The notes beneath the pieces were generated by a model. It was not told the origin of the DNA. It worked only from the letters and a program-made list of their open reading frames with translations, and ran no database searches. From an uncultured bacterium (GTDB lineage: Bacteria; Patescibacteriota; Gracilibacteria; BD1-5; UBA2023), in the NCBI GenBank assembly GCA_903908595.1, contig CAIVSN010000142.1, positions 13,315 to 77,314 of the forward strand: a DNA stretch of 64,000 nucleotides, written 5' to 3'. Within the stretch, counting starts at the first letter, position 1. Each line of letters begins with the position of its first letter. A program made the position numbers and the translations under genes. This document shows, piece after piece, positions 35,886-51,006 of this stretch.

Positions 35886-38507
35886 TTATTCGGTATAGGT
35901 TACGCCTCAGATAATGACGGAATTCGCATCAAGGTCAAATCGGATTTCAGTATCGCCAAGGACATAGTGTTTGACAGCTATGTCCAATAGGCCGCCAATC
36001 TTCCGGAATTGGTTTTCAAAATCTATGGTATTGATCTGTACGGGGAGCAACTTCACTTCGATTCCCCCGTACAGATTGACGCCATTGGAATTTTTTACGG
36101 TAAATGCCACGTTCCGGAACGCATGGATTTCCGTTTGGAATACGTAATCGGACGATACGGTAATCACATAGCTCTGCATCTTGGTCGGAACGGTCGTTAC
36201 GACATCGAAAATGGAAATGAGGTAGTTACCGTCGACGATTTCCGCTTTGACGTTTTTCATGGCAATTGGCAAGGCACCCGAAACGATGGCAAAGTCCCCC
36301 TCGATCAGCTCGCGTTGCTTGAAGAGTTGCATCTTTGCATTAGGAGCTTCTCCGGTTTGCGTTACGATGGCACCGCTCGAAGCTACCGCTTCGGCACTCT
36401 CGAAAAAAGTCAGTTTGAAATAATTGCGAAAATCGCGCCGCTCCCTTTCTTCCGTCGAATTCGATATCACGGGCCGTTCGGCAAGGTCTTTCTTTTTCGC
36501 GTCAAGACTGACGGTCGCTTTTTGGAACGAAGCATTCTCGGCCCCCGAAGCGTCCTTGAAGACCAGTTCCTGTATCGTATGTCATTTCGGGATGAATTTG
36601 AAGGTGAACGGCCTTGAGAAAATCTTTACCGACACCCGGTAGAAGCCGTCTAATTTATAATCGTTGCCGACTTTCAGCGTTTCCGTATCCACTCAGGAAT
36701 ACTCCTTGAAGAACGACACGAGATCCTCGATGGTGAGTTCGTATTCGGGACGTTCGAGACCCGTGGCTCACTTGCTCGCTTCCGAAAGCTCTATTTGCGT
36801 ACGGTAGTTTTCGTAGTCCCGGAAAATACCGTACAGGGCGTTCATTTTCTGATTCGAGTTGGTAAACTGGGTCAGGTTATTCACGCTGTTATCCTCGGTT
36901 TTTCCCAACTCGGAGAGATAGAGTTCGCGATAGTTTTTCAAGAACGATACCTGGTTCTGAATGAGGAATTCGAGTGCCGTCAAGGATTCCTCGGGAATAT
37001 TGGCCTTGTTTCTCGAAGTTTGGAAATTGGGTTTCAAAGTGAGATTGTCCGACGTTCCATCGAAAAAACGGAATTCGATTCCCGATGCCATACGCTCGGT
37101 GATGGAGTGAAAGCTGAAATAGAAGATGGAAAGCATGTTGGATTTTTCCACGTTTCCCGACAAGAACTGGATATAATTGTCAGCGATGGAAAGGAGCTGG
37201 GAAAACAGCCGGAAATTCGAATCGCTGGACGTTCCTTCGTTGTTGAGGAATTCTTTGAGATAGTAGGTGAACCCGAGGAATTCCCGCTCCCCCATGGACT
37301 TGGAATTCACGAGAAACGTGATGTAACCCGTAAGATTCTTCTGAAGCTCTTCCGAATCGCGTTTCCCGAAAAAATATTGCGTGTAGATGCCCGACAATAG
37401 CTTATATACCCGCTGGTTGTTCGATTTGGAATTCGGAAAAACGGTTTGGTACACGTTGGTGATCGTGCTTCCCCCGATTCCGTAGTATTCCGAGGAATGA
37501 TTGACATTTACGGAATTTCAAAGCGTGATGTACTTCCGTATCAGCTTTTTCGCATCCGCTCATTCCTGCGGACCAATGGCTTCGAGTCGTTTCAGGCGAT
37601 CCTGTATCTGTTTCGAAACGTTGGCGGAATCGATGGATTTTTCCTTGCAAAAACTACACTCGTCAATCTCCAGGAGGATCATGGTCTGAAGCAACGATAT
37701 CAGGGATCCTTCCAGAATCACCCTTTTTTTCTGTCAATTCACGAAAAACAAGCCGAACTCGTCGATTTTATCCAATCCCTTCGATTGGGATGGATTGAAT
37801 TTGGCGAGCAATTTCCGAATCTCGTCCTGCCGGTTATCGTAATATTTGCGGTATTCGTCGAAAAGTACTTTGGTCGTTTCGGCATTTTCTCAGAAAATCA
37901 AGGCGAATCAGGATTCAACGTAAGGATCTGAAATCGTCAAAGTAGCCAGTTGTCCGACGCGGAAAACGTCGGATTTTACCAATTTGGGCGCCAAGTCCGG
38001 ATCGTATCCGAAAAATTCCGAAGGGAATATTTCCAACGTGGTCATGACTTCTTCCTTACTGAGAAGCTCCACTCGGAGCAGGGCCGATAGGGAATAGATC
38101 CGTATGTCATTGCGGGTGTCCAGGAAGTAGGCCCCGTTCGAAAGGTGGCTAATGGTAAAATCCGCGTGTTTGACGGCATATTCCCGGTACGCGTCGAAAG
38201 CGTTTACCAAATACAGTCACTTTCCCACGGAGATGGTTTTCGTATCCATGGACAGATCGATCTTGGGAACTTCGGAATCGTCCAGATAGAAAATCGCGTC
38301 CCCGTCGTCCAAACGCTTCGCGAGGACTTTGGTGCTTTCTTGCATATCCACGAGCTTGCCTCATACGAGGGAATACGGGATGTCCTTCGGGAAAATCTGC
38401 TCGTCAACGAAATCCGGAGTCTTTGAAACCGGTTTTTGTCCGAGCGAAACCCCGATGAGGATGGTGGACAAAATGGTTACGAGCAATCAGTAGAATATTT
38501 TTTTCAT
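35886..38507 (-). CDS. Large N-terminally anchored hypothetical protein, ~873 aa
   Basis: Same-frame fragments joined across TGA; signal/TM 'MKKIFYGLLVTILSTILIG'. Confidence 0.7.
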
Positions 38508-38554
38508 GGGTACATCATATCAGGAAATATTTGAAGTTACAATTTATGGCTCGC

Positions 38555-39748
38555 TTATATGTCTCGACAATCTCGTTCGATTATTTCTTTATACCTTTTC
38601 ACGAAGGGGGAATCCCACAGGATAAGTCACGCTTCCCGGTTCTCGTCGAGCGAATTCCTGGTAAAATTTTCGCTTCAGACGAACAGGATCGTATCGTCGA
38701 TCAGGAGCGTTTTCGCGTGGACGTACGGGGACTTCGCCTGACGGAAATCCACTCCGATACCCTTCATACGCTCCGACAGGGCCTTCCGCTCGGCATCCGG
38801 CGCATAGGCTAGGCAAACTCGCACCGAAACGCCCCGTTTCCGCAATTCGGCGAATATTCATAGCAGCGATTCGTCCGACAGGGACGCCGCGAACAGGCGG
38901 ACTTCGGTTTTGGCGGCGCGGAGATGCGATTCCAATTTGATCCGGGAATCGGTGGGCGAAAGGTAGGCATTCTCCTGGGAACCGCGAAAAGGGAACCGCT
39001 GGAAATCGGCTTCGAACAGCCGTTTCATGAACCCGACGGTCGGAACATCGGGGGTTTCCACCAAGAATTCCCGGTTTTTCGCGAACGATGTAGCGGTAAA
39101 ATTCGAGGTAGCCAAATACAGGACGTCATCGGCCAGCACGTATTTCGCATGATTGAAATTCTGCCGGGTCTCGTCCGCCCATCCGACCAGGATGCCCTCG
39201 TTCGCGAGCCGGGCGAACATATCCGCATTGCCCTTCGGGTTTTCATAGGGCGACCTTTCGAGAATGACCCTAACGGGAAGATTCCTCCGGCGTGCCGAAA
39301 TCAGCGAATTGACGAGCTTCGTGTCCGAAAGGAGGTACACGTTCAGATCGACCGCGCGTTTCGCTCCATCGATTCTCGCCGCGAGCATGTCGCCGTTTCC
39401 GTCGTCAGGGGAAACCCAGACGCGGTGTTCGATGGGCCGGATTTCCGAAACGGCGTGCGCCGATCGGGGAATTTGCGCTTCCCACTCGCGCAATTCGGCA
39501 TAATCCGAATACCGGCTTTCGCAGGAAACGCAAAGGAGCGTAGAAAACAACAGCAGGATATGCCTAACCAAATGTGGTTTTCGGTATTTTATAGTTACGG
39601 ATTCGGAATAGATTATATTTTTCTTCTTTCGGGAGCGTATCGGCAATACGTGACCGAAGAAAAAAATCGAAGATATCCGAATAGGTAAGCTGGAAAAACC
39701 GGGGAACCGATTTTGGTCAGGTATACCGCCTATCGGAAAGGGTTTCAT
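38555..39748 (-). CDS. Phospholipase D family lipoprotein (two HKD motifs)
   Basis: HAKYVLAD and HAKTLLID motifs, 'FVG(TGA)SENFT', 'NRE'; in-frame family-A insertion near the N-terminus. Confidence 0.88.
39559..39725 (+). mobile_element. MITE family A, copy 2 (in frame within the PLD gene)
   Basis: Same internal sequence as the other copies; TA-to-TA distance 165 bp. Confidence 0.78.
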
Positions 39749-40005
39749 ACGGAAATGCGAACGGAATAGGATTCCGAAGATCCGAGCGCTTGGGCGACGA
39801 TTTCGCTTATGGGTTCGCCGTACATTCGGATCTCCGTCCTGGCCAGCGTATGGATGACCCGTACTTTGATATAAGAATTTTTTACGAAAACCGATACGAT
39901 GGCATCGGCAAGGTGCTGCTGGCCGATGCTGACGAAATGGTCGCGTACCCTTTTGGTCAAGAGGGCCGACTGCGCGATGGGCGAGAGGATCTTACCGATT
40001 TCCAT
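39730..40005 (-). CDS. DciA/DUF721-like small protein
   Basis: 'MEIGKIL...IKVRVIHTLARTEIRM...EIV' pattern. Confidence 0.5.
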
Positions 40006-40666
40006 AATCCAACATGGCAAAGCGGGGAATTCCCGAAGTATCGCTCCAGCTTTCGACGGCAAGCCCGTATCATTCGGCCCAGGCCTTTACCAAAGGGAGT
40101 TGCGTATGTCAGAATTCGAGCGCCAACCTCATGCCTTTGCAAGATTCCGCCAACCGGAGCGATTCCCCGAGCAGCCGCACGATGAGGTCGAATCCGCGTT
40201 CCCCGCCCCCGTACAGGGCGATGGCGGGGTCTTCGGCCACGACGTCTTCCCCGACGTCTTCCCCGGGGCCGACATAGGGAAGGTTCGCGAGGATCAAGAC
40301 GTATTTCCCGGCAATTTTCGCGAGTCCGTTCGCATCGAAAAACGGCGCGAGCAAATCCCCTTGGACGAATTCCACGGGAATCCGATTCGTTTCGGCATTT
40401 TTCCGGGCCACCTCGAGCGCGTCTGTGGAAATATCGACGGCGAACCATTCCGAGTCGGGAAACCGGGAGGCTACCGACAAAATAACCGCCCCTGAACCCG
40501 TTCCCACGTCGATGACGGCGTCGGGACGGGGAAAACCCTTGGAACGCTGAACCGTTCAAAGCACGAGCGACTCGGTTTCCAGACGCGGGGTCAGTACCCG
40601 GCGATCGCACTCCAACGTCACGCCCAGGAAAACGACGCGTTCGGAAACGCCCGGATGGCTAGGCAT
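39992..40666 (-). CDS. prmC: Release factor glutamine methyltransferase (short N-terminus)
   Basis: 'VLTPRLETE', 'DVGTGSGAV', 'ANLPYV', 'DPAIALYGG'. Confidence 0.85.
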
Positions 40667-41426
40667 TCTCGAATTTTTTGTATTCGAATATCACGGAAGT
40701 GGCAATCAGTATCACTGCCAAATAGGCCACGGCCGTCCCGAAATTGACCGCGTAAAAACTGGACGCGAGCCCTACCGGCGTGCCTAGGGTATTTTTTGCC
40801 ATGTTCAGCGCTTCGAACTGGGGAAACAGGGCCATGAGGAATTTTGACAAGTACACGAGCCCCATATTCTCGTTCCGGAGGGCCATGTCCAGGACTCCCG
40901 TGACGGAATGCGATGCGATGTACACCCCCAGGGTGAACAGGATGGAAAGGAGCGGGGAACTGAACGTGGAGAAAAAGAGGATGATGGCGAAAACGAGCAG
41001 AAGCTTCATGGCTATGGCCCCGACCGCGACCAATACCAGCGGGTCGAAAGCGATCCCTTGGAACGCGATGAGTCCGGAAAGCACCAATCCCTGAAATGCC
41101 ACCAGCAGGAGAATAATCGCTCAGAATCAGAGGAATTTTCCAAGGATGTAATCCTTTCGCGCAATCGGCTTGGAGAGGATGAGGTAGATGGTACGGCCCT
41201 CGATTTCCTTGAACAGGATCTGTCCGCCGACGAAAATCACGGCGATGAGCCCCCCGATTTCTATCATGGCGAGCCCGAAATCCACGACGAGGCGCTTGGT
41301 TTCCCCGAGCGAAAGGCTCGCGAGCACCAAGGAAAAACCGATCAGCACGCAGGCAAACAGGAGGATGACGGTAAGAATTCGGTTCCGGAGAAGTTCCCGG
41401 AAGGTATTTATGGCGATATTGTTCAT
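40659..41426 (-). CDS. ABC-2 type transporter permease
   Basis: 'IAINTFRELLR', 'KEIEGRTIYLILSKPIAR..YILGKF'; multiple TM helices. Confidence 0.85.
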
Positions 41427-41460
41427 GTCGCAGAGTATAAAAAAAATGCAAAAAATCACA

Positions 41461-41746
41461 AGCGGAACGGAAAATTCGGCGAGGCCCAGGCGGAATATCG
41501 CGCCGGGAACCGCGTTAAAACGACGAAATCCGAAGTCAATTTCGAGTACCGTAGCGAGGCGTACCGATAGGTACGCCCGCAAGGAACGGAAAATTCGGCG
41601 AGGCCCGGGCGGAATATCGCGCCGGAAACCGCGTTAAAACGACGAAATCCGAAGTCAATTTCGAGTACCGTAGCGAGGCGTACCGATAGGTACGCCCGCA
41701 AGGAACGCAGAAATTGACAAGGAGTTCGCGTTTTAACGCGGTTTCC
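41461..41746 (+). repeat. Family B tandem copies, 119-bp period
   Basis: Near-identical units starting at 41466 and 41585. Confidence 0.85.
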
Positions 41747-42670
41747 CTATTCGAATTTACCGAAGCGGAGGAGTTCGGGGGCATCCCGCCTCGGCTTTCA
41801 TTCGACAATGACGTCGCCCAGCTCTATCGTGCCTTCTTTGGTTACCACATGAATTCGGCCGCCGGCGGTCGTCCGGAAGCTACCGGGCGTCAGTGCGGAG
41901 GGATCCGACGCCACCACCGTGCAACCGCAAATCTTGATTCGCTTCCCGTCCAGCACCGTCCAAGCCCCCGGCCAAGTAGTGCAGGCCTGCCATCGCCGGT
42001 AAACCTCCGTCGCGGTCATTTCCGCCCAAAGGATCCGGCCATTGTCTTTCTCGAACTTCTTGGTATAGGTCGCGAGCGAATGGTCCTGTTCCACGATGGA
42101 AATTCTGTGGTCCGCATGCTTCCGGAGCGCGGAAAGCAGCGAATTTCCGGAAATTTTCGCGAATTTCGCAAACAGCGTATCGCTGGTTTCTTCCGGATCG
42201 ATGGCAATGGCGGTCATCTCCAGGATTCCGCCCTCGTCCATGCCGGCGGTCATTTCCATGATGGTGACCCCCGTTTCTTTTTCCCCTTCCAGCAACGCCG
42301 ACTGTATCGGGGAAGCCCCCCGGTACTTCGGCAAAAGCGAGCCGTGGACGTTCACGGGGAGACGCTTCGGCAGAGCGAGGATTTCGACCGGGAGAATCCT
42401 TCCGTACGCAACCACGACAAGGTAGTCCACTTCGAATTTTTGCAGTTCGGCAAGGAATTCCGGATTATTCCGTATTTTTTCGGGGCGGTACAGCGGCAAG
42501 CCGCTCTCCATGGCGAGCCGGGATACCGGGCTCGCCGTCATGTCCGCGTGGCGGCCGACCGGGCGATCCGGCTGGCTCACGGCGTACGCTACCTCGACGT
42601 CGTCGGCCGCGAGGCAATCCCGGAGCACTGCGGCCGAGAGTTCGGGGGTTCCGAAAAATCCTATTTTCAT
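41747..42670 (-). CDS. fmt: Methionyl-tRNA formyltransferase
   Basis: 'KIGFFGTPE', 'SQPDRPVGR', 'VVAYGRILP', 'NVHGSLLPKYRGASPIQ'. Confidence 0.95.
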
Positions 42671-44499
42671 GCGGTTATCATGTGATTGAATTGCGAATCT
42701 CAACGGGTCAGCCGCAGCACGACTCCCCCGTACGGCGTTCCGGATCCGTCGGTCAGGGTCTTCTGGGAACGGACGTTCCGGAGCGTGACTCCGGTCATGG
42801 TTCCGGGAAAACCGATGGTCGTCGGGAATCTCGTCCCGGAAACTTCGGTATCGAGGGGATACACGAGAAAAATGTTCTTTTGGACGGCATCGTCCACGGG
42901 AATCACCTGCTGGGGAAGATCGAATGTCCCCGAGAGGGTGAAGGCCAGGGAAGGCGTGGAACTCGTCCGTATTTCGCGCTTGTAGGTGCGGTTTTCGGAT
43001 ACCAGCGCATACCCGGGCTTGGTCGATCCGGAATAGGAAAGGGTTCCGATTTTCGTCGCCCAATCGTAATCCATCAGTACGGGATTGGACGTCCGATAGG
43101 TATTGAGATTGACGATGATTCCCCGTTTGTCTTTGGAAAACTGCATGGAGTAGTCGGAAATGGTGCCTTCCCACACTTCCCGGTCGAGATCCTGGATGAG
43201 ATTGCCTATTCGCGACTGGACGTAGGAATTTTTGGCGGACTCCCCGAGCGAGGAAAAAATCTTGTACCCCGTAACGGAAATGAGGGAAATCAGCGTCATG
43301 ACAATCAGGAGTTCCACCAGGGAAAATCCGGATTTCGCGGGGTGCTTCAGGGAAAGGATCTTGGTGATGAACACGATGACCAGGACCAGTGCCACGAACA
43401 GGATGATTTTGCCGATTTTGTCGAGGAACACCGCGGAAATCCCAAAAAACAACGCGATGGAGTACACGAAATTCCGAATGAACGCGTCCGACATGCCAAT
43501 CGCCTTGAGCCGGTAGTGCAGATGGTGGATCCGATCGCCCTTGAGGGGATTTTTCCCGTTGAAAATCCTGGCGAAAATGACATAGATGGCATCTACCAGA
43601 TATACCCCCAGCGCCGTGGCGACGGTGGCAATCTTCCCGCCTACCAGGATGGCGAGCGACGCGATCATGAACGCGAGAAACATCGTCCCGCTGTCCCCGA
43701 GCAGCATCTTCGGGGTCAGGTTGTAATACCAGGCCCATATCAGCGGAGGAATGACGATGGCCAGTACCCCGAATACGAAAATGGAGTTCTGTCGGAGCGC
43801 CGGCGTGGTGTCGAGCAGATAGAATCGGATGGTAGAGATCAGGATCACGAACAGGGTGATCGTGGTAAGGCCCACCGTAAGTCCGGGAACCCCGTCGCTC
43901 CAGTTGACGCTGTTGAACACCAGGACGTACCAGAAAACGGTGAAAAAGAGCGGGATGAGGAACACCTCGTACCCGAACAGGGACACCGAGAAAAAATCGA
44001 GGTACAGGATGCCCCCGAAAATATTGGAAACGTAGCTGATCTTGATGCTCGTCAATCCGATGATGAGCCCCACCAGCACCTGCATGGCCAGTCGGACTTT
44101 CGGAGAAATGGCAAAGCCGGTCTTCCGGGTCCTGGAAAGCTCTTCGGTCGAGGTTCTCGGCTTCGTCTTCTCGTCCCGGTCGAACTTGAAGATCGTGTCG
44201 AGGTCGTCGACGAAGCTCAAACCCGTAACGATGCCTCACAGGACGGCCAGCACGATCAGCTTGTCGCTGAGTTCGAGGAGTCCCGCCAGGATGGAAATGC
44301 CGGAAATCAGGAGAAAATTCAGATAGAGCAGGAGTCAGAAACCGAACGGGACGGGTTCCCGGTCGTGACCGTACGGCGCCGGATTGTCGAGCAGCCCGTA
44401 CTTGCGGAAAATTCTGGCCCCGAAAAAAAACATAAGGTAGCTTCCCGCGAACGAAAGGGTCGCGATGGAAAGAAACGTTATCGGATTGGCCAACAGCAT
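42661..44499 (-). CDS. MraY/WecA-family glycosyl-1-phosphate transferase fused to a type IV pilin-like domain, ~612 aa
   Basis: 'SFVDD', 'NSVNWSDGVPGL', 'LLGDSG', 'DRIHHLHYRL', then in frame 'KSG|FSLVELLIVMTLISLISV'. Confidence 0.85.
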
Positions 44500-44501
44500 G
44501 G

Positions 44502-45254
44502 TTATTTTTGTAATTCTTCTTGCAATTCCTTTTGCTTGTCGCGCACGTATTCCATGAATTCCTTCCGGCGGTACGTCGCGACGTATCCGACCACGCCGAG
44601 GAATATCGCCAGGAAGAACCAGGATATCCAGTCCAACACTATATCGATATACGTCGTAAAGAAAACCCCGAGCGTCAATATGGCGAACGACCAGAGTATC
44701 GACCCGATGACGTTGTACCGCCAGAATTTGTCGTTTTTCATGGAAAACGAGCCCGCGAGAAACGGCACGAACGCTCGGGTGAAATTATGGAATTTGCCGA
44801 ACACGATGAACAGCGGGCCGTTTTTATCGATGCGCTTGGCGAGAATCTTCTGTTCGGTCTTGCCGAGCGCGAACACGTCCCCGTATTTTGCCAGGAAAGC
44901 GAGCCCGTACCTCACGCCGAGCCAGTATCCCACCCAGTTGCCCAATATCGCCCCGACGCACGCCGCGAAAACCGCCAGCAGGAAATGGGATTGCCCATAG
45001 AATCCGCCGACCACCAGCATGACCTGTTGCCCGGGCACCATGATTCCGATGACCGGAAAGGATTCGATGAAGCTCGTCAGGAACACGATGACAAAATTCC
45101 AATGGCCGAGCTGTGCGGAGAGCGCCCCTACGGCCCGGATGGCCCGTTCGGCTAAGTCGGGACGGAAAATAAAAATGCCCAATATCGCCATAAAGAACAG
45201 GCTCATGATCCCTTGGAGCCATTGGATTCAAATCGTGGGAGTTGGTTTTTTCAT
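44502..45254 (-). CDS. DedA family membrane protein
   Basis: 'FIES...PGQ', 'GAILGNWVGYWLG', 'RAFVPFLAG', 'FWRYN'. Confidence 0.88.
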
Positions 45255-45321
45255 GCATACACGATAGTGCGGAATCCAAAAAATCAACTTCTTATGCCGA
45301 ATTGGGCGAATTTCGATGGTT

Positions 45322-45522
45322 TGTACCCAACGGGAATTGGTTTTCGGTATTTTACGGTTACAGATTCGGAACAGGTTTTATTTTTCTTCTTCCGGGAGCT
45401 TATCGGGAATAAGTGACCGAAGAAAAAAATAAAAGATGTCCGAATATGTGGCTGGAAAAACCGGGAAACCAATTCCGGATCCGTAACCGTAAAATACCGA
45501 AAACCAATTCCTATTGGGTATA
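45322..45522 (+). mobile_element. MITE family A, copy 3 with an extra inverted left end
   Basis: Near-full copy followed by ~40 bp reverse complement of the left end (45481-45520). Confidence 0.78.
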
Positions 45523-45591
45523 TGAAACCATAAAAAAGAGACCCTCCTGCAAAAAAATCGAATTCCGGGAAGGATAGGAATGGGTTCGTCA

Positions 45592-47226
45592 TTACTTGAC
45601 CGTCTTCTTTTTCGAAACGTTCGGAGTCCTTGTGGGGTTTACGCTGGTTTTTGATGGCGCGACGGAAGGGGGCGCGACCTTGGCTCCAGTCATCGAAGGC
45701 GGAAGCGCCAGCGCCCCGGTTCCCACCGGTTTTACCGCACCGGTAGAGGTCGGAAGGGGAACAATGGGCGGTTTTGCGGCACCGGTACCCGTAATTGCTG
45801 GAAGCTTCGAGCCGGAGCCGGTTAAACTGACGGATCCTATGGAAGTGCGTTTCACGTTCGCGGTCGGCTTGCGCAATATGATGCCGGATCCGGTTGCGGG
45901 CGCTATGGCCACCGCTCCGGTCGATGCCAGAAGGGCTCCGGTTCATTCCGGGATTGGCGGGAGAATCGCGCCCGTGCCGGCGACGGCCGTAGCGCCGGTA
46001 AGAAACGGTACCGCCGGTACGATGGAGCCGGTGGAAACGCCGCTTCCAGCCACCGGTGGCACGGCGGTATCCGCGGGCGGAACGAGTGGGATTTTCGGCA
46101 ACTTGGGAGTTACTACGGCGACGACCGGCGGCTCCGTCACGCTCGCTTTTTCCCCTTTCAAATCCAGGATTCCGAACCCGTACAGCGAACCGACGATTCC
46201 AAGGGAAACGACCATGGCGGCCATTCCGTAGATCACCTTTTTCCTCTTGTCGAACAATTCGGACAACCCGCCCTTCCGATCCTTGGAAAGATCTTTCGCC
46301 ACGGCCTCCACGTATTCCAGCGGGATTGCCGGTACCGGTGCCGGAGCTACTGCCGAGGCGACCAACGTGGCCTCGGAAAGGGGTTCGACGGCGAAAATCT
46401 CTTCCTTCGAAGCGGCTTCGGCCACGACCTGCTCCATGGAAAGCAATACCGCGGATTGGGGAGAAGCGGTTTCCTTCGAGGATACCGGGGCAACGGAATC
46501 CGCTGTCACCGCTTGGATTTCAGCTTCGGAGGTTGCTGATCGAATCGGGGTGGGATTCGGAACCACGGCTTCCGCGACTGCCGGTTTTTCCACTACTTCG
46601 TTTTCCGATCCGAAGGAACCCATTTCCGCAATATCCTTGAAGAGGAAATCGTTCTCGAATTCCAAGTTCGGGAAGAATTCGGAACTGGCTGCCGGGGATT
46701 TTTTATCGGTGACGAGCGCCTTCGGGGCGGGAACCTCGACGGGGAACGCTTTCGTTTCCGCGATTGGAGCGGGTTCGGCGACTGGCTCTGCGGCAATCTT
46801 CGGCGCAGTAGCCGGTTCCGGTTCGATGGCCAAGGAAACGGTTGGCACCGGTTGGGAAATTTCCGTTGGCAAAGACGAAACGACGGGTGGCGCGACCTCC
46901 TTCGTTACTTGGCTTACGACGGGAGTTTCCATTGCGGCAGAAGCCGGAGCTACCGCGGGAATAGATCCGGGTTTTTTGAAACTCGCGAGCGAGAGTTTGG
47001 GCTTATGGGAAACCTCCTGGGGGGATTTGGCTTCCGGTTCGATCGCCACGGCCGGAAGGACGGCCGCTGGAGAAGCCACTGCTACGGTTTCGGGAAGAGA
47101 TGCCGGGGTTTCGGCGGTTTCGGGAAGCGATGCCGGGGTTTCGGCAATGGAAACCGGAACGCTGGCAAGCTGGTTTCCGCTCTGGATTTTTTGCTTTTTC
47201 AATGCTGAGAGATCGAGTTTGGCCAT
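45592..47226 (-). CDS. Pro/Ala-rich single-TM protein, 544 aa
   Basis: Low-complexity regions either side of one TM helix; TGA at 45943. Confidence 0.75.
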
Positions 47227-47376
47227 AGGGAAGAAAAGTACCCTCCCACTGTACGATATTTTATTTGATAAGTCAAAAAGTAGACGTTTCTCCGTTTTCT
47301 TCTTTACTTAACGAGATTTTGGATAGAATTAGCGCAACTTTTTCTGAAAGGGTTTTTTTATTTTGAACCGATTACT

Positions 47377-49176
47377 ATGCTATACCGAAATGTCGCAATC
47401 ATTGCCCACGTTGACCACGGAAAGACCACCCTCGTCGATGCCCTCCTCAAGCAGTCCGGGGTTTTCCGCGACAACGAAGCGGTAGAAGTGTGCGTCATGG
47501 ACTCCAACGACCAAGAAAAGGAGCGCGGGATTACCATCTATGCGAAAAACACTGCCGTATTCTACAAGGATGTCAAAATCAACATCGTCGATACCCCCGG
47601 GCATGCCGACTTCGGATCCGAAGTCGAGCGGGTGCTGCGGATGGTCGACTCCGTCTGCCTCGTCGTCGACGCCTACGAAGGACCGATGCCGCAGACCAAA
47701 TTCGTCCTCAAGAAGGCCCTGAGCCTCGGACTTCGGCCGATCGTCATCATCAACAAGATCGACAAGCCTACGGCGCGTCCCGACGAGGTCGTCGACATGC
47801 TCTTCGATCTCTTCGTCCAGCTCGGCGCTTCCGACGAACAGCTCGATTTTCCGGTCGTCTACGCGATTGCCCGGGAAGGGGTGGCGGTACGGAAACTCAC
47901 CGACGAGAAAGTCGACATCCACCCGATTTTCGACATCATCCTCGAACACGTCGCCGCGGCGGAGAACGATTTGGAAAAGCCGTTCCGGATGCAGATCGCG
48001 AACCTCGCCTATGACAACTATCTCGGCCGCCTCGGTATCGGACGCGTCTACGAAGGGGTCGTAAAGGCCGGACAGACCGTTACCATCCTCGGCAACGACG
48101 GTGCGAAGCGAACCGGAAAAATATCCAAGTGTTTCACCTCCCTCGGGCTCAAGCGGAACGAAGTGGCAGCAGCGGAAGCCGGAGATATCGTGACGATTGC
48201 GGGCATCGCCGACATCTACGTCGGGGAAACCGTTTCCAGCGTTCCGGATTTCGACGCCATGCCCCCGATCACCATCGACGAGCCGACGCTCAAAATGGAA
48301 TTCCGCGTCAACGATTCCCCGTTTGCCGGCAAGGAAGGCAAGTACGTGACTTCCCGCAATATCCGGGAACGCCTCGAAAAGGAATTGGAAATGAACGTGG
48401 GACTCAAGGTCGATTTCGAGGGTTCCGACGGAAACGGGTACAACGTGTCCGGGCGTGGCGAACTCCATCTCTCCGTGCTCATCGAATCGATGCGGCGGGA
48501 AGGTTTCGAACTCTGCGTCGGGGCTCCTCAAGTCATCTTCCACGAAGACGGCGGGAAAAGGCAGGAACCGATCGAGCAGGTAACGGTCTTCGTGCCGGAA
48601 GCCGACTCCGGATCCATCATCGAAGCCCTCGGGAAGCGGAAGGGCCTCATCAAGAACATGGACACCAAGAACTGAATCACGAATCTCGAATTCGAAGTAC
48701 CGACCCGTGGGCTCCTCGGGTTCCGATCCCAGTTCGTCACACAGACCAAGGGAGAAGGCATCATCTATTCCGCGTTTTCCCATTACGAGGACTACAAGGG
48801 AACGATCGAAAAACGGGAAGTCGGATCCATGATTTCCGGCGTGGGCGGCAACTCCATGGCCTACTCGCTCTGGAAGCTCGAAGAACGCGGACCGATTTTT
48901 ATCGATCCGCAGACCGAAGTTTACGAAGGGATGGTCATCGGGGAACACCTCAAGGGAGGCGACCTCGTCGTCAACCCCACCAAGAACAAGCAGCTCACCA
49001 ACATGCGGGCTTCCGGAACGGACGAAGCGGTCCGGCTCACGCCCCCGCGCAAATTCTCCCTGGAAGAAGCGCTCGACTACATTTCTTCCAACGAATACGT
49101 CGAGGTCACCCCATTGAATATCCGCCTCCGCAAGAAATGACTCACCGAAGCCGACCGCAAACGGAACGGCAAATAG
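47377..49176 (+). CDS. typA: Translational GTPase TypA/BipA
   Basis: 'AHVDHGKTT', 'DTPGHADF', 'NKID', 'GRGELHL', 'YEGMVIGE'; two TGA. Confidence 0.96.
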
Positions 49177-49470
49177 GGTGGGAACTCGGGCAAAACGCGA
49201 ACTCCTTGTCAATTTCTCCGCTCCTCGCTCTGCGTATACCCAAACGAATTTGGTTTTCGGTATTTTATGGTCATAGATTTGGAATAGATTTTATTTTTCT
49301 TCTTTTGGGAGCTTATCGGCAATAAGTGACCAAAGAAAAAAATAAAAGATATCCAAATATGTGACGAGAAAAACCGGGAAACCAATTTCGTTTGGGTATA
49401 CTTGCCAGTACGCTTCGCTACGGTGCTCGAAATTGACTTCGGATTTCATCGTTTTTCCCGAGTCCCGGGG
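49160..49470 (-). repeat. Family B copy interrupted by a family A element
   Basis: Both halves match B copy 53007-53130 in reverse orientation. Confidence 0.75.
49235..49400 (+). mobile_element. MITE family A, copy 4
   Basis: TIRs and TA duplication. Confidence 0.82.
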
Positions 49471-49499
49471 GAAGACGCGACCGGAAAAAGACAATTTTT

Positions 49500-49527
49500 T
49501 GACAAAATCCCCTCCTTCCATACAATC
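49500..49527 (+). promoter_or_regulatory. sigma70 promoter
   Basis: TTGACA-16-TACAAT upstream of CDS 49553. Confidence 0.65.
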
Positions 49528-49552
49528 TCCATCATTCTAACACCCATTCCAC

Positions 49553-49756
49553 ATGATCGTATACGCGATTAAAAACTCTACCGAGTCCAACGAAAAACTC
49601 GTTCTCCGCTACAAGAAGATGTTCTTCCAAACCCGCACTGCCAACAAGCTCAAAGCCGAAGCCCAGGAGCAACGGAAGGTAAGCCGGCGGAAAATCCGGG
49701 AAGCCGCGATCGTCCGGAATTTTTACCGAGTGGCTAACAAAAACAACGCCGCGTAG
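49553..49756 (+). CDS. rpsU: Probable 30S ribosomal protein bS21
   Basis: 67 aa basic protein, 'ESNEKLVLRYKK...SRRKIREAA'. Confidence 0.6.
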   Translation: MIVYAIKNSTESNEKLVLRYKKMFFQTRTANKLKAEAQEQRKVSRRKIREAAIVRNFYRVANKNNAA

Positions 49757-49857
49757 TTAAAACTATATTATACCACAAAAAAACAGATCTGTAACGGTCT
49801 GTTTTTTTGACCTTCGCGAAAAGATAGGATACGCTATGGAGGTCAATATAAAAACCA

Positions 49858-51006
49858 ATGCAAAATACCCCTATCGCCGATCTCCTGACCGAACTGGAAA
49901 CCCCAAAGACCCCTTTGATCGAAGGGATTGCCAGAAATCCCGAAACGCCGGCCGTTTCCCCGTTCAACACCTCCATTTCCTTCCTGTCGAACCGGATGGA
50001 AGATACCCTCCTGAACCTCGAAGAAACGCCTTCGGTGACATGGGACATGCTTTCCAGCCTCGAAGAAATACCGGTTGTCACCGAGGCAAAAACAGCGGCG
50101 ATTCCCGATATGCTCCTAAGCCTGGAAGCGTCGCCCGTCGCCCGGACGATTTTGGACGTATCGGTGGTACCGAAATCCCCGGCTTCGAACCTCGCGGCGA
50201 ACCTGAAAGCCGGACTCCGATTCCTTTCCCATTACGTAGCGGTTTCCAGTATCGTATTCGCGGTACTGCTCGTTGCGACGAATTGGTCGGCCTACTATAC
50301 GGTAGTCCTCAACTATGTAAGCCCCGGGGAAGTCCTCGCGGCGAACCAGCAGATCCAAGAAACCCTCTCCAATTCCAAAATCACCGTGTATGCCGACGAG
50401 TCCGGCACGAGCGCTTTTGAGAAGAACGAGAAGGCTGAAGATATAAAGAAGCAACTGGACGCGGAAAACATCCAAGTCGACGAAGAGCCGTTTTCCATGA
50501 AAAACCTCATCCCGACCGAGCCGAACATTTCCGCGAAATTCAATATCACCCCCTACGAAAACCGCATCATCATTCCGAAAATCGGGAAAAACATCCCTCT
50601 GGTCGATATTTCCATCACGAAGTCTTTCGATTTCGATCACATGGAAAATATCTTCATGACGGAATTGGAGAAGGGCGTGGTCCGATACCCCGGATCGGCG
50701 GCCCCCGGTGAAAAAGGCAACGCGTTCGTCTTTGGCCACTCGTCCAACTATCCTTGGATGAAAGGGAACTACAACGAAGTTTTCGCGCTCCTCGACAACG
50801 TCGAATTCGGCGATCAGATCATCGTTTTTTATAACCAGAAAAAATTCGTGTACACCGTCCGGGAGAAAAAAATCGTCCGTCCCGGGGACGTGAAAGCACT
50901 GGAAAGGAATCCCGAAGCCACCGAACTCTCGCTCATGACGTGCTGGCCCATCGGCACCACCCTCAAGCGCATGCTCGTGTTCGCCGAATTAACCGAAACC
51001 CACTAA
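49858..51006 (+). CDS. Sortase family protein
   Basis: 'GNAFVFGHSS', 'LSLMTCWP', 'KRMLVFA' His-Cys-Arg triad; TM anchor. Confidence 0.9.
   Translation: MQNTPIADLLTELETPKTPLIEGIARNPETPAVSPFNTSISFLSNRMEDTLLNLEETPSVTWDMLSSLEEIPVVTEAKTAAIPDMLLSLEASPVARTILDVSVVPKSPASNLAANLKAGLRFLSHYVAVSSIVFAVLLVATNWSAYYTVVLNYVSPGEVLAANQQIQETLSNSKITVYADESGTSAFEKNEKAEDIKKQLDAENIQVDEEPFSMKNLIPTEPNISAKFNITPYENRIIIPKIGKNIPLVDISITKSFDFDHMENIFMTELEKGVVRYPGSAAPGEKGNAFVFGHSSNYPWMKGNYNEVFALLDNVEFGDQIIVFYNQKKFVYTVREKKIVRPGDVKALERNPEATELSLMTCWPIGTTLKRMLVFAELTETH

Follow-up and report, generated by a model that had tools for sequence, protein, structure and literature searches.

A natural in-frame fusion of a PNPT-superfamily enzyme and a type IV pilin across a putative prepilin peptidase site in Gracilibacteria

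A fused gene between dedA and fmt

The stretch of DNA analysed in this study (the window) comprises 64,000 nucleotides (nt) of contig CAIVSN010000142.1, from assembly GCA_903908595.1 of an uncultured gracilibacterium (lineage BD1-5; UBA2023; here genome G000), and carries on its minus strand, at 42661-44499, a gene in which an enzyme of the PNPT (MraY/WecA) superfamily runs directly into a type IV pilin. Under genetic code 25, in which TGA encodes glycine, this gene is a single open reading frame (ORF) of 612 amino acids (aa), here named P0001, which ends at the stop codon 42663-42661, contains four TGA codons (G55, G88, G600 and G611) and received a codon-usage score of 189.8 from the codon-score caller used for gene calls on the window. 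The source organism decodes TGA as glycine, and many frames of the window are open under table 25 only. The C-terminal extension beyond TGA codon 600 is kept in relatives, one of which has a serine at that position. Under code 11 (table 11), an ORF of 506 aa (42700-44220) already crosses the junction between the two modules, so the fusion is independent of the genetic code.

As defined by Pfam matches, an AlphaFold (AF2) model and fold alignment, the enzyme module covers residues 1-383 (43351-44499, minus strand) with 11 predicted transmembrane helices. The last of these, an extra helix in the model at residues 361-384 (43348-43419, minus strand), carries the hydropathy peak of 2.97 at residues 365-383. 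It is followed by the basic linker LKHPAKSG (residues 384-391; 43327-43350, minus strand), which is delimited by alignments, has low model confidence and ends in the glycine at position -1. The predicted mature pilin module, F392 to K612 (221 residues; 42664-43326, minus strand), is assigned by PF07963, TIGR02532, the model and orthology. With the candidate scissile bond written as a slash, the junction reads ...TKILSLKHPAKSG391/F392SLVE396LLIVMTLISLISV, placing G-1 at G391 (43329-43327), F+1 at F392 (43326-43324) and E+5 at E396; the site string in P0001 is LKHPAKSG/FSLVELLIVMTLISLISV, and the stretch across G391/F392 includes HPAKSGFSLVELL. The closest in-frame ATG 5' of the site is 55 codons away.

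Two neighbouring genes on the same strand frame the fused ORF tightly. A dedA-family gene with a VTT domain (PF09335; 44502-45200) lies upstream, separated by a 2-nt gap, and fmt, the gene for methionyl-tRNA formyltransferase (PF00551, PF02911; 41747-42670), lies downstream with its ATG overlapping the last 10 nt of the fused ORF. The ATGA at 42667-42670 is common to the fmt start and to the last TGA codon (Gly611), the two frames overlapping by 10 nt, and the same overlap of a ...GK-stop end with fmt is also found in genomes G001, G003, G004, G005 and G020.

A TagO/WecA-like enzyme module

The enzyme module matches Pfam family PF00953 (Glycos_transf_4) at residues 83-286 (E 1.4e-14; 54.8 bits, cut-off 27). 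It contains VDDLDT at 96-101, NSVNWSDGVPGL at 196-207 and IHHLH at 324-328, corresponding to the DDxD motif, the NxxNxxDGxxGL motif and the His cluster, the catalytic motifs of the PNPT superfamily; their columns are invariant or nearly so across two alignments of the enzyme (A1 and A3). The AF2 model of the fused protein (mean predicted local distance difference test score, pLDDT, 77; predicted template modelling score 0.65) shows the ten-helix PNPT fold. Residues 1-363 of the model align with the whole DPAGT1 chain 6bw6_D (Z 31.2, root mean square deviation 2.8 Å, 307 aligned residues) and the model aligns with Escherichia coli MraY 8g01_A (Z 30.4, 3.6 Å, 316 aligned residues, chain range 18-360), and Foldseek agrees with a match to the MraY/DPAGT1 fold. 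Sequence searches of solved structures with the whole protein returned only pilin N-termini with weak E-values, while a profile of 24 standalone relatives recovered one MraY chain (E 2.6e-7).

An identity as MraY itself was considered and rejected. The TIGR00445 scores of 36.1-40.2 bits compare with an equivalog cut-off of 192, and a separate MraY-class locus (157-229 bits, 24 of these loci above the cut-off) is present in 38 of 41 genomes, making the fused enzyme a paralogue rather than MraY. No canonical MraY was found in G000, where the fused gene is the only match to PF00953 or TIGR00445; this genome does have MurG, four Mur-ligase matches and FtsW, and the missing MraY is probably an assembly gap. 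Among the 10 NCBIfam families listed at E-values up to 1, no WecA or TagO model matched, TIGR00445 being the sole PNPT model. Given the TagA, LCP and Wzy_C genes found elsewhere in the genome, the enzyme is best read as the putative general TagO/WecA-type initiator of surface glycans linked to undecaprenyl diphosphate in this lineage.

These genes belong to a broader glycan repertoire. Pfam matches define a surface-glycan cluster (L071) at 1-13739 of contig C134 in G000, which encodes a Wzx-like protein (PF01943), a 1,108-aa membrane protein without a Pfam family, TagA/WecG (PF03808), a family 1 glycosyltransferase (GT1), Wzy_C (PF04932), FtsW and an LPXTG protein with an FN3 domain, and the end of the contig carries a pilin gene (MSSKSG/FSLIELL). 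Wzy_C-family genes occur in G000, and in one case another pilin gene lies 4 kb away. An LCP ligase (PF03816) is encoded on contig C65, and the genome also has a sortase. In this assembly, estimated to be 98.65% complete, STT3 was not found and PMT_2 stayed under its cut-off. TagA/WecG is known to use the product of TagO/WecA, LCP enzymes join such polymers to peptidoglycan, the TagO-TagA-LCP series acts in teichoic acid synthesis, and DedA-family proteins recycle undecaprenyl phosphate. In G000, the TagA/WecG, LCP and Wzy_C genes are at least as indicative of a wall polymer as of a pilin glycan.

The pilin module and its predicted orientation

The N_methyl family PF07963 matches residues 389-409 (24.2 bits, cut-off 21.2) and NCBIfam TIGR02532 matches residues 390-410 (23.6 bits, cut-off 16.3). 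G-1, F+1 and E+5 are followed by a hydrophobic stretch (hydropathy 2.25 over residues 391-409), and the whole-protein model shows the pilin fold of a long N-terminal helix and a beta domain, here a 51-residue alpha1 helix (394-444) followed by a beta-rich domain with strands at 449-609. A fold search with the pilin part, taken from the whole model, returned weak Ig/FN3-like matches only (Z 6-6.7, residues 468-550), which may reflect a common arrangement only. The short basic leader at the N terminus of pilins is absent, the motif beginning at residue 391 of 612 behind an 11-helix enzyme. The preliminary description of this DNA had reported a continuous frame from a complete MraY/WecA-like enzyme into a pilin-like domain of about 200 aa, with an intact prepilin peptidase site and no in-frame ATG just before it, and each of these points agrees with the 612-aa ORF, the Pfam and NCBIfam matches above their cut-offs, the residues at G391/F392 and E396, the 221-residue pilin part and the distance to the nearest ATG.

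For this site to serve a prepilin peptidase it must face the cytoplasm, as that description had recognized. The PNPT fold ends at about residue 363 of the model, a position equivalent to the final residues of E. coli MraY, and since the fold alignment covers residues 1-363, the helix at 361-384, the most hydrophobic segment of the protein (2.97), is an additional span. In the solved structures of MraY and DPAGT1 the N and C termini are found on the outer face of the membrane (periplasmic or lumenal), and the motif-bearing loops of the PNPT family are cytoplasmic; in P0001 these loops fall in the expected alternation with the predicted helices. Tails rich in lysine follow helix 11 in the paralogues P0025 and P0087. 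From the fold alignment, the extra helix and the basic linker we infer that the linker and the G/F bond are probably cytoplasmic and the pilin domain outside, which would be the orientation of every prepilin. The pilin helix would then insert as a twelfth membrane span with the beta-rich domain outside, and the fusion may have been tolerated because it is topologically seamless, the enzyme ending in the cytoplasm, the very place at which prepilin leaders start.

The fusion is real and conserved in one clade

Logan contigs from four of four metagenome runs of one study bridge the junction with 0 differences and 0 gaps, although one of these runs may be the sample from which the window was assembled. 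A search of a public protein collection yielded 87 matches, of which six contain both parts at 70-100% identity; one of the six (P0002) is the window's own code-11 product, P0003-P0007 are fused too, and the fusion extends to metagenome proteins at 70-78% identity. The remaining matches (at most 68% identity) are 342-438 aa long and end in ...TKILSLKK or similar. The enzyme is present in 61 of 61 related genomes. In four species-level genomes of one genus (G000, G001, G003 and G004), the match continues through both modules and meets no stop apart from TGA. In a maximum-likelihood tree of the enzyme part, all eight fused rows form one clade with support of 98/98, neighboured by G005 (split), G002 (no pilin) and their relatives. 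One fusion event therefore suffices, and on this phylogeny it took place a single time, in the forebear of one clade of the genus.

Comparison of the four fused genomes further indicates that both halves have been maintained. Synonymous differences (pS) are saturated at 0.68-0.95, and at 0.68-0.86 in the pilin part, while non-synonymous differences (pN) amount to 0.10-0.14 for the enzyme and 0.20-0.27 for the pilin domain; as pN lies far under the saturated pS, both halves have long been kept under purifying selection. G-1, F+1 and E+5 are identical across the fused sequences although their codons vary (GGA/GGT, GAA/GAG), and the linker drifts in sequence and length (KHPAKS, KNPGKS, NTKNQSKS, KTSSKG). 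We conclude that this is a natural in-frame fusion, genuine and conserved in its clade.

Origin from a coupled gene pair

The junction or the sequence downstream of the enzyme was read in 27 genomes, made up of the 20 best loci and 7 extra regions that had been picked for a second match beside the enzyme, so that this part of the sample is biased towards pairs. Four genomes have the fusion, 15 have a separate pilin gene, seven have no pilin there, and the locus of one (G008) lies at a contig edge. In the 15 split genomes (G005, G006, G015, G016, G018, G019, G020, G022, G024, G029, G035, G036, G037, G049 and G057), the start of the pilin gene coincides with the PNPT stop or lies no more than about 130 nt from it. 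The G005 junction, AAA AAA TAATG, leads into MKRG/FTLVELL; in G024, TAG C ATG leads into MKG/F, and the same TAG C ATG occurs in G016 and G036; the two genes overlap by 11 nt in G006 and share a frame with one stop between them in G049. Where no pilin follows, fmt is directly next (G002, G021 and G023) or other sequence takes its place (G011, G013, G017 and G025). A separate observation concerns G020 (L048, about 2615-2640), whose pilin ORF has no ATG, GTG or TTG near the site (...KNNIA/FSLVELL) and lies in the +1 frame directly after AAA AAA TAA T; an unusual start or a frame change may be involved.

The fused pilin part is orthologous to the separate pilins at the same position (E about 1e-26 for G005 and G024; about 30% identity), a resemblance of the modules beyond chance, and the 3' end of the pilin overlaps the fmt start both in the fused genomes and in G005. 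In 20 of 20 loci the PNPT gene has a DedA-family gene as its immediate upstream neighbour, and 15 of the 20 have fmt on the downstream side. PNPT-pilin adjacency, in 19 of the 27 genomes read, extends across two families of the order. From gene order and spacing we recognize a conserved dedA-PNPT-(pilin)-fmt operon with predicted tight translational coupling, in which the ancestral state is two genes forming a coupled pair. An in-frame linker of 7-9 residues took the place of the stop-start overlap between the coupled genes, and the fusion would be a substitute for that coupling rather than a new function. The preliminary description had proposed that PilD releases the two products in a 1:1 ratio. 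Split relatives already couple their genes by stop/start overlap, so the 1:1 ratio predates the fusion. It had also allowed that the finding would fall if relatives had two separate genes and the junction were a sequencing error or a private stop loss; more distant relatives do have two genes, while the junction, crossed without differences by contigs of all four runs and shared, under selection, by the monophyletic group of four genomes and metagenome proteins, is neither.

Other features of the window and genome

Several features of G000 are of separate interest. Its assembly measures 2.41 Mb in 186 contigs, compared with 0.7-1.6 Mb in 60 relatives. It contains 84-85 pilin-motif ORFs, most with a nearly identical helix (FTLVELIVVITILAILGTIGF) followed by 450-970 residues, which resemble very large modular pilins. 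Within the window, a 119-nt unit is present twice in tandem (98% identity) at 41464-41701, between fmt and an ABC-2 permease gene, and gives rise to repeated spurious 'MRAYLSVRLATVLEIDFGF...' ORFs. Just upstream of dedA is an inverted repeat (45324-45378/45466-45520) with 55-nt arms, 89% complementary and 87 nt apart; like peptide strings recur in spurious ORFs near 38555-39748 and 58176, which suggests a dispersed repeat element. Rfam gave nothing at gathering score for 38000-50000 of the window. Two further minus-strand genes have good coding scores and products without a Pfam family: a 544-aa Pro/Ala/Thr-rich protein with one hydrophobic span (45592-47226), just upstream of dedA, and an 873-aa secreted-looking protein (35886-38507).

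Discussion

In this study, we describe a natural fusion of two coupled genes whose product, in our somewhat favoured reading, is cleaved by PilD into the same two proteins that its relatives make separately. G000 encodes one PilD with both A24 domains (PF06750 and PF01478) and 10 pilus-type ATPases (T2SSE). This one peptidase would hydrolyse the bond between G391 and F392 and methylate the newly exposed F392, yielding the enzyme with a tail of 7-8 residues and an ordinary mature pilin; these products would equal those that relatives make from two genes, and the enzyme would serve as a polytopic 'leader' of 391 residues. Among the 84 pilin-motif ORFs found by a motif scan of G000, the fused ORF is the only one with an in-frame positive coding score upstream. 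The nearest upstream ATG of the other pilins is commonly 14-37 codons before the site, so leaders in this genome may be long if these predicted starts are used.

Several considerations weigh against cleavage. PilD would have to accept a substrate tethered 7-9 residues from another membrane helix, and our literature searches, with subscription journals and supplements outside their range, found no prepilin with a polytopic N-terminal extension. The conservation of G-1 and E+5 comes from about seven distinct, related sequences only. The predicted topology is built on the fold alignment, the known orientation of the MraY and DPAGT1 termini, and charge bias, and the basic linker region (385-393) is modelled with low confidence, pLDDT falling below 50 at 389-392.

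The main rival to cleavage is a permanent tether, which we regard as possible but clearly the less probable of the two. The uncut pilin helix would form a twelfth span and keep the extracytoplasmic beta-rich domain attached to the enzyme, perhaps as an integral partner or a sensor in the wall-glycan pathway, and the class III motif would be a relic. Gene fusions often mark jointly acting proteins, the PNPT-pilin pair adjoins in genomes of two families, precedent for PilD cutting behind a polytopic domain did not emerge from the literature searches, and purifying selection on the pilin domain is expected whether it is cut or uncut. On the other hand, the buried E+5 and the G-1 have no evident use in a plain anchor, yet both are kept while the linker drifts. 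Furthermore, the split orthologues have ordinary short leaders (MKRG/F, MKG/F), which indicates that the ancestral protein was a normal PilD substrate, and a tethered pilin would be unable to enter a filament.

A specific functional link between enzyme and pilin is unlikely overall. Read as a 'Rosetta stone', the fusion would reveal a dedicated pilin-like protein that physically works with the TagO/WecA-like enzyme across Gracilibacteria, with the enzyme as a removable leader and the pilin acting, for example, as a glycan acceptor or as part of a pilus-type device that handles wall polymer; we rate this as improbable, somewhat below the tether. If it were true, the fusion would be the first natural polyprotein substrate of the class III signal peptidase, and the prepilin peptidase would be able to cut a loop between two membrane helices.

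More doubtful still is the narrower proposal, made in the preliminary description, that this pilin is itself the recipient of the glycan started by the enzyme and that the fusion couples glycosylation stoichiometrically to pilus assembly. In favour of the proposal are the roles of PNPT enzymes as initiators of glycans on the pilin of Pseudomonas aeruginosa 1244 and on the archaellins of methanogens, the conserved PNPT-pilin adjacency and the Wzy_C genes, one near a pilin, which could include a pilin O-oligosaccharyltransferase. The same operon, however, holds dedA in all 20 loci and usually fmt (15/20), and since fmt is unrelated to pili, neighbouring genes in this operon need not share a role. 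In seven of the 27 genomes the enzyme occurs with no pilin next to it, TagA/WecG and the LCP ligase indicate a peptidoglycan-linked polymer, and a catalytic enzyme needs no 1:1 ratio with its final acceptor. With fmt in the operon and TagA/LCP suggesting a wall polymer, the proposed coupling of glycosylation to pilus assembly found no specific support.

It is very improbable that translation starts internally, a short way upstream of the site, and so makes the pilin as a separate product. LKHPAKSG resembles a normal leader, and candidate start codons exist in G000 (GTG at -15 and CTG at -7) and in G004 (GTG at -17 and TTG at -9). Those of G000, the window's own assembly, are kept in none of the other fused genomes, and no ATG, GTG or TTG occurs within the 20 codons preceding the site in G001 and G003, so that the pilin part can be made there only within the long protein. 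Moreover, the candidate starts sit within the coding sequence of helix 11, and the stop-start overlap of split relatives, a possible driver of re-initiation, is gone. An error of assembly or sequencing, or a decaying gene that has recently and privately lost its stop, can be dismissed almost entirely: the two genes of more distant relatives would fit it, but the gapless contigs of all four runs, the recurrence of the fusion in four genomes and in metagenome proteins at 70-78% identity, the monophyly of the fused clade and purifying selection at saturated synonymous sites speak against it.

If PilD does cut the fused protein, prepilin peptidases accept a whole polytopic membrane protein as a 'leader', which would widen the presumed abilities of GxGD-type intramembrane proteases and surprise pilus specialists, and surveys that consider class III signal peptides at the N terminus only would miss some substrates. 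If the protein stays uncut, the fusion represents a new accessory domain on a PNPT enzyme. The conserved link of a pilin gene to a wall-glycan-initiating enzyme and dedA offers a lead on how Gracilibacteria, here pilus-rich candidates for episymbionts or predators, build their surface. The reach of the fusion itself is limited, since a single clade of one uncultured genus carries it and the proteins it yields are most likely the two that relatives already make.

Comparison with known systems

The closest counterparts of the fused gene are the split orthologues of G005, G024 and G016, which share the dedA-PNPT-pilin-fmt operon, the enzyme family (with its ...TKILSLKK end) and the overlap with fmt. 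They differ in making separate polypeptides with leaders of 3-6 residues (MKRG/F, MKG/F, MRSKKG/F), where the fused gene has an in-frame linker of 7-9 residues. MraY belongs to the same superfamily and has the same fold (Z about 30), but has one helix fewer than the fused enzyme, whose TIGR00445 score is far under the cut-off. The initiating transferases of the WecA/TagO/WbpL type have in common with it the PNPT fold, the catalytic motifs and the extra eleventh helix, which in the fused enzyme is a predicted one; E. coli WecA has 11 helices and a cytoplasmic C terminus. TagA/WecG, LCP, Wzx-like and Wzy_C genes are present in G000; WbpL, for its part, acts with TfpO in the pilin glycosylation of P. 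aeruginosa 1244. Differences from this group are that no curated WecA/TagO family matches the fused enzyme and that the pilin fusion is peculiar to it; to our knowledge, none of the known WecA/TagO/WbpL-type enzymes is fused to a pilin. Our literature searches, within the range given above, likewise found no WecA-pilin gene fusion and no pilin behind a polytopic enzyme.

On the pilin side, type IVa leaders have 5-7 residues and those of type IVb prepilins up to about 30, the latter being soluble cytoplasmic peptides. Type IVb prepilins thus also combine a leader longer than that of type IVa with a glycine at -1 before a hydrophobic helix. Their leaders are nevertheless short soluble peptides, whereas the 'leader' in the fused protein would comprise 391 residues, 11 helices and an enzymatic function.

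One study of Gracilibacteria describes a wealth of genes for type IV pili and secretion, along with a peptidoglycan synthesis pathway that is complete (PMC11452946); the gene content of G000 agrees with this account, whose accessible part does not mention the fusion. Modular type IV pilins, such as Streptococcus sanguinis PilB, number more than 1,200 proteins in 264 architectures according to a survey that looked only for the N-terminal IPR012902 motif (PMC8179133). As outlined there, they too join a pilin module to a module that is not specific to pilus biology, but with the pilin at the N terminus and the extra module on the C terminus for display on the filament (PMC8179133). In the fused protein, by contrast with those outlined arrangements, the extra module is a polytopic membrane enzyme that lies N-terminal to the site and would be removed.

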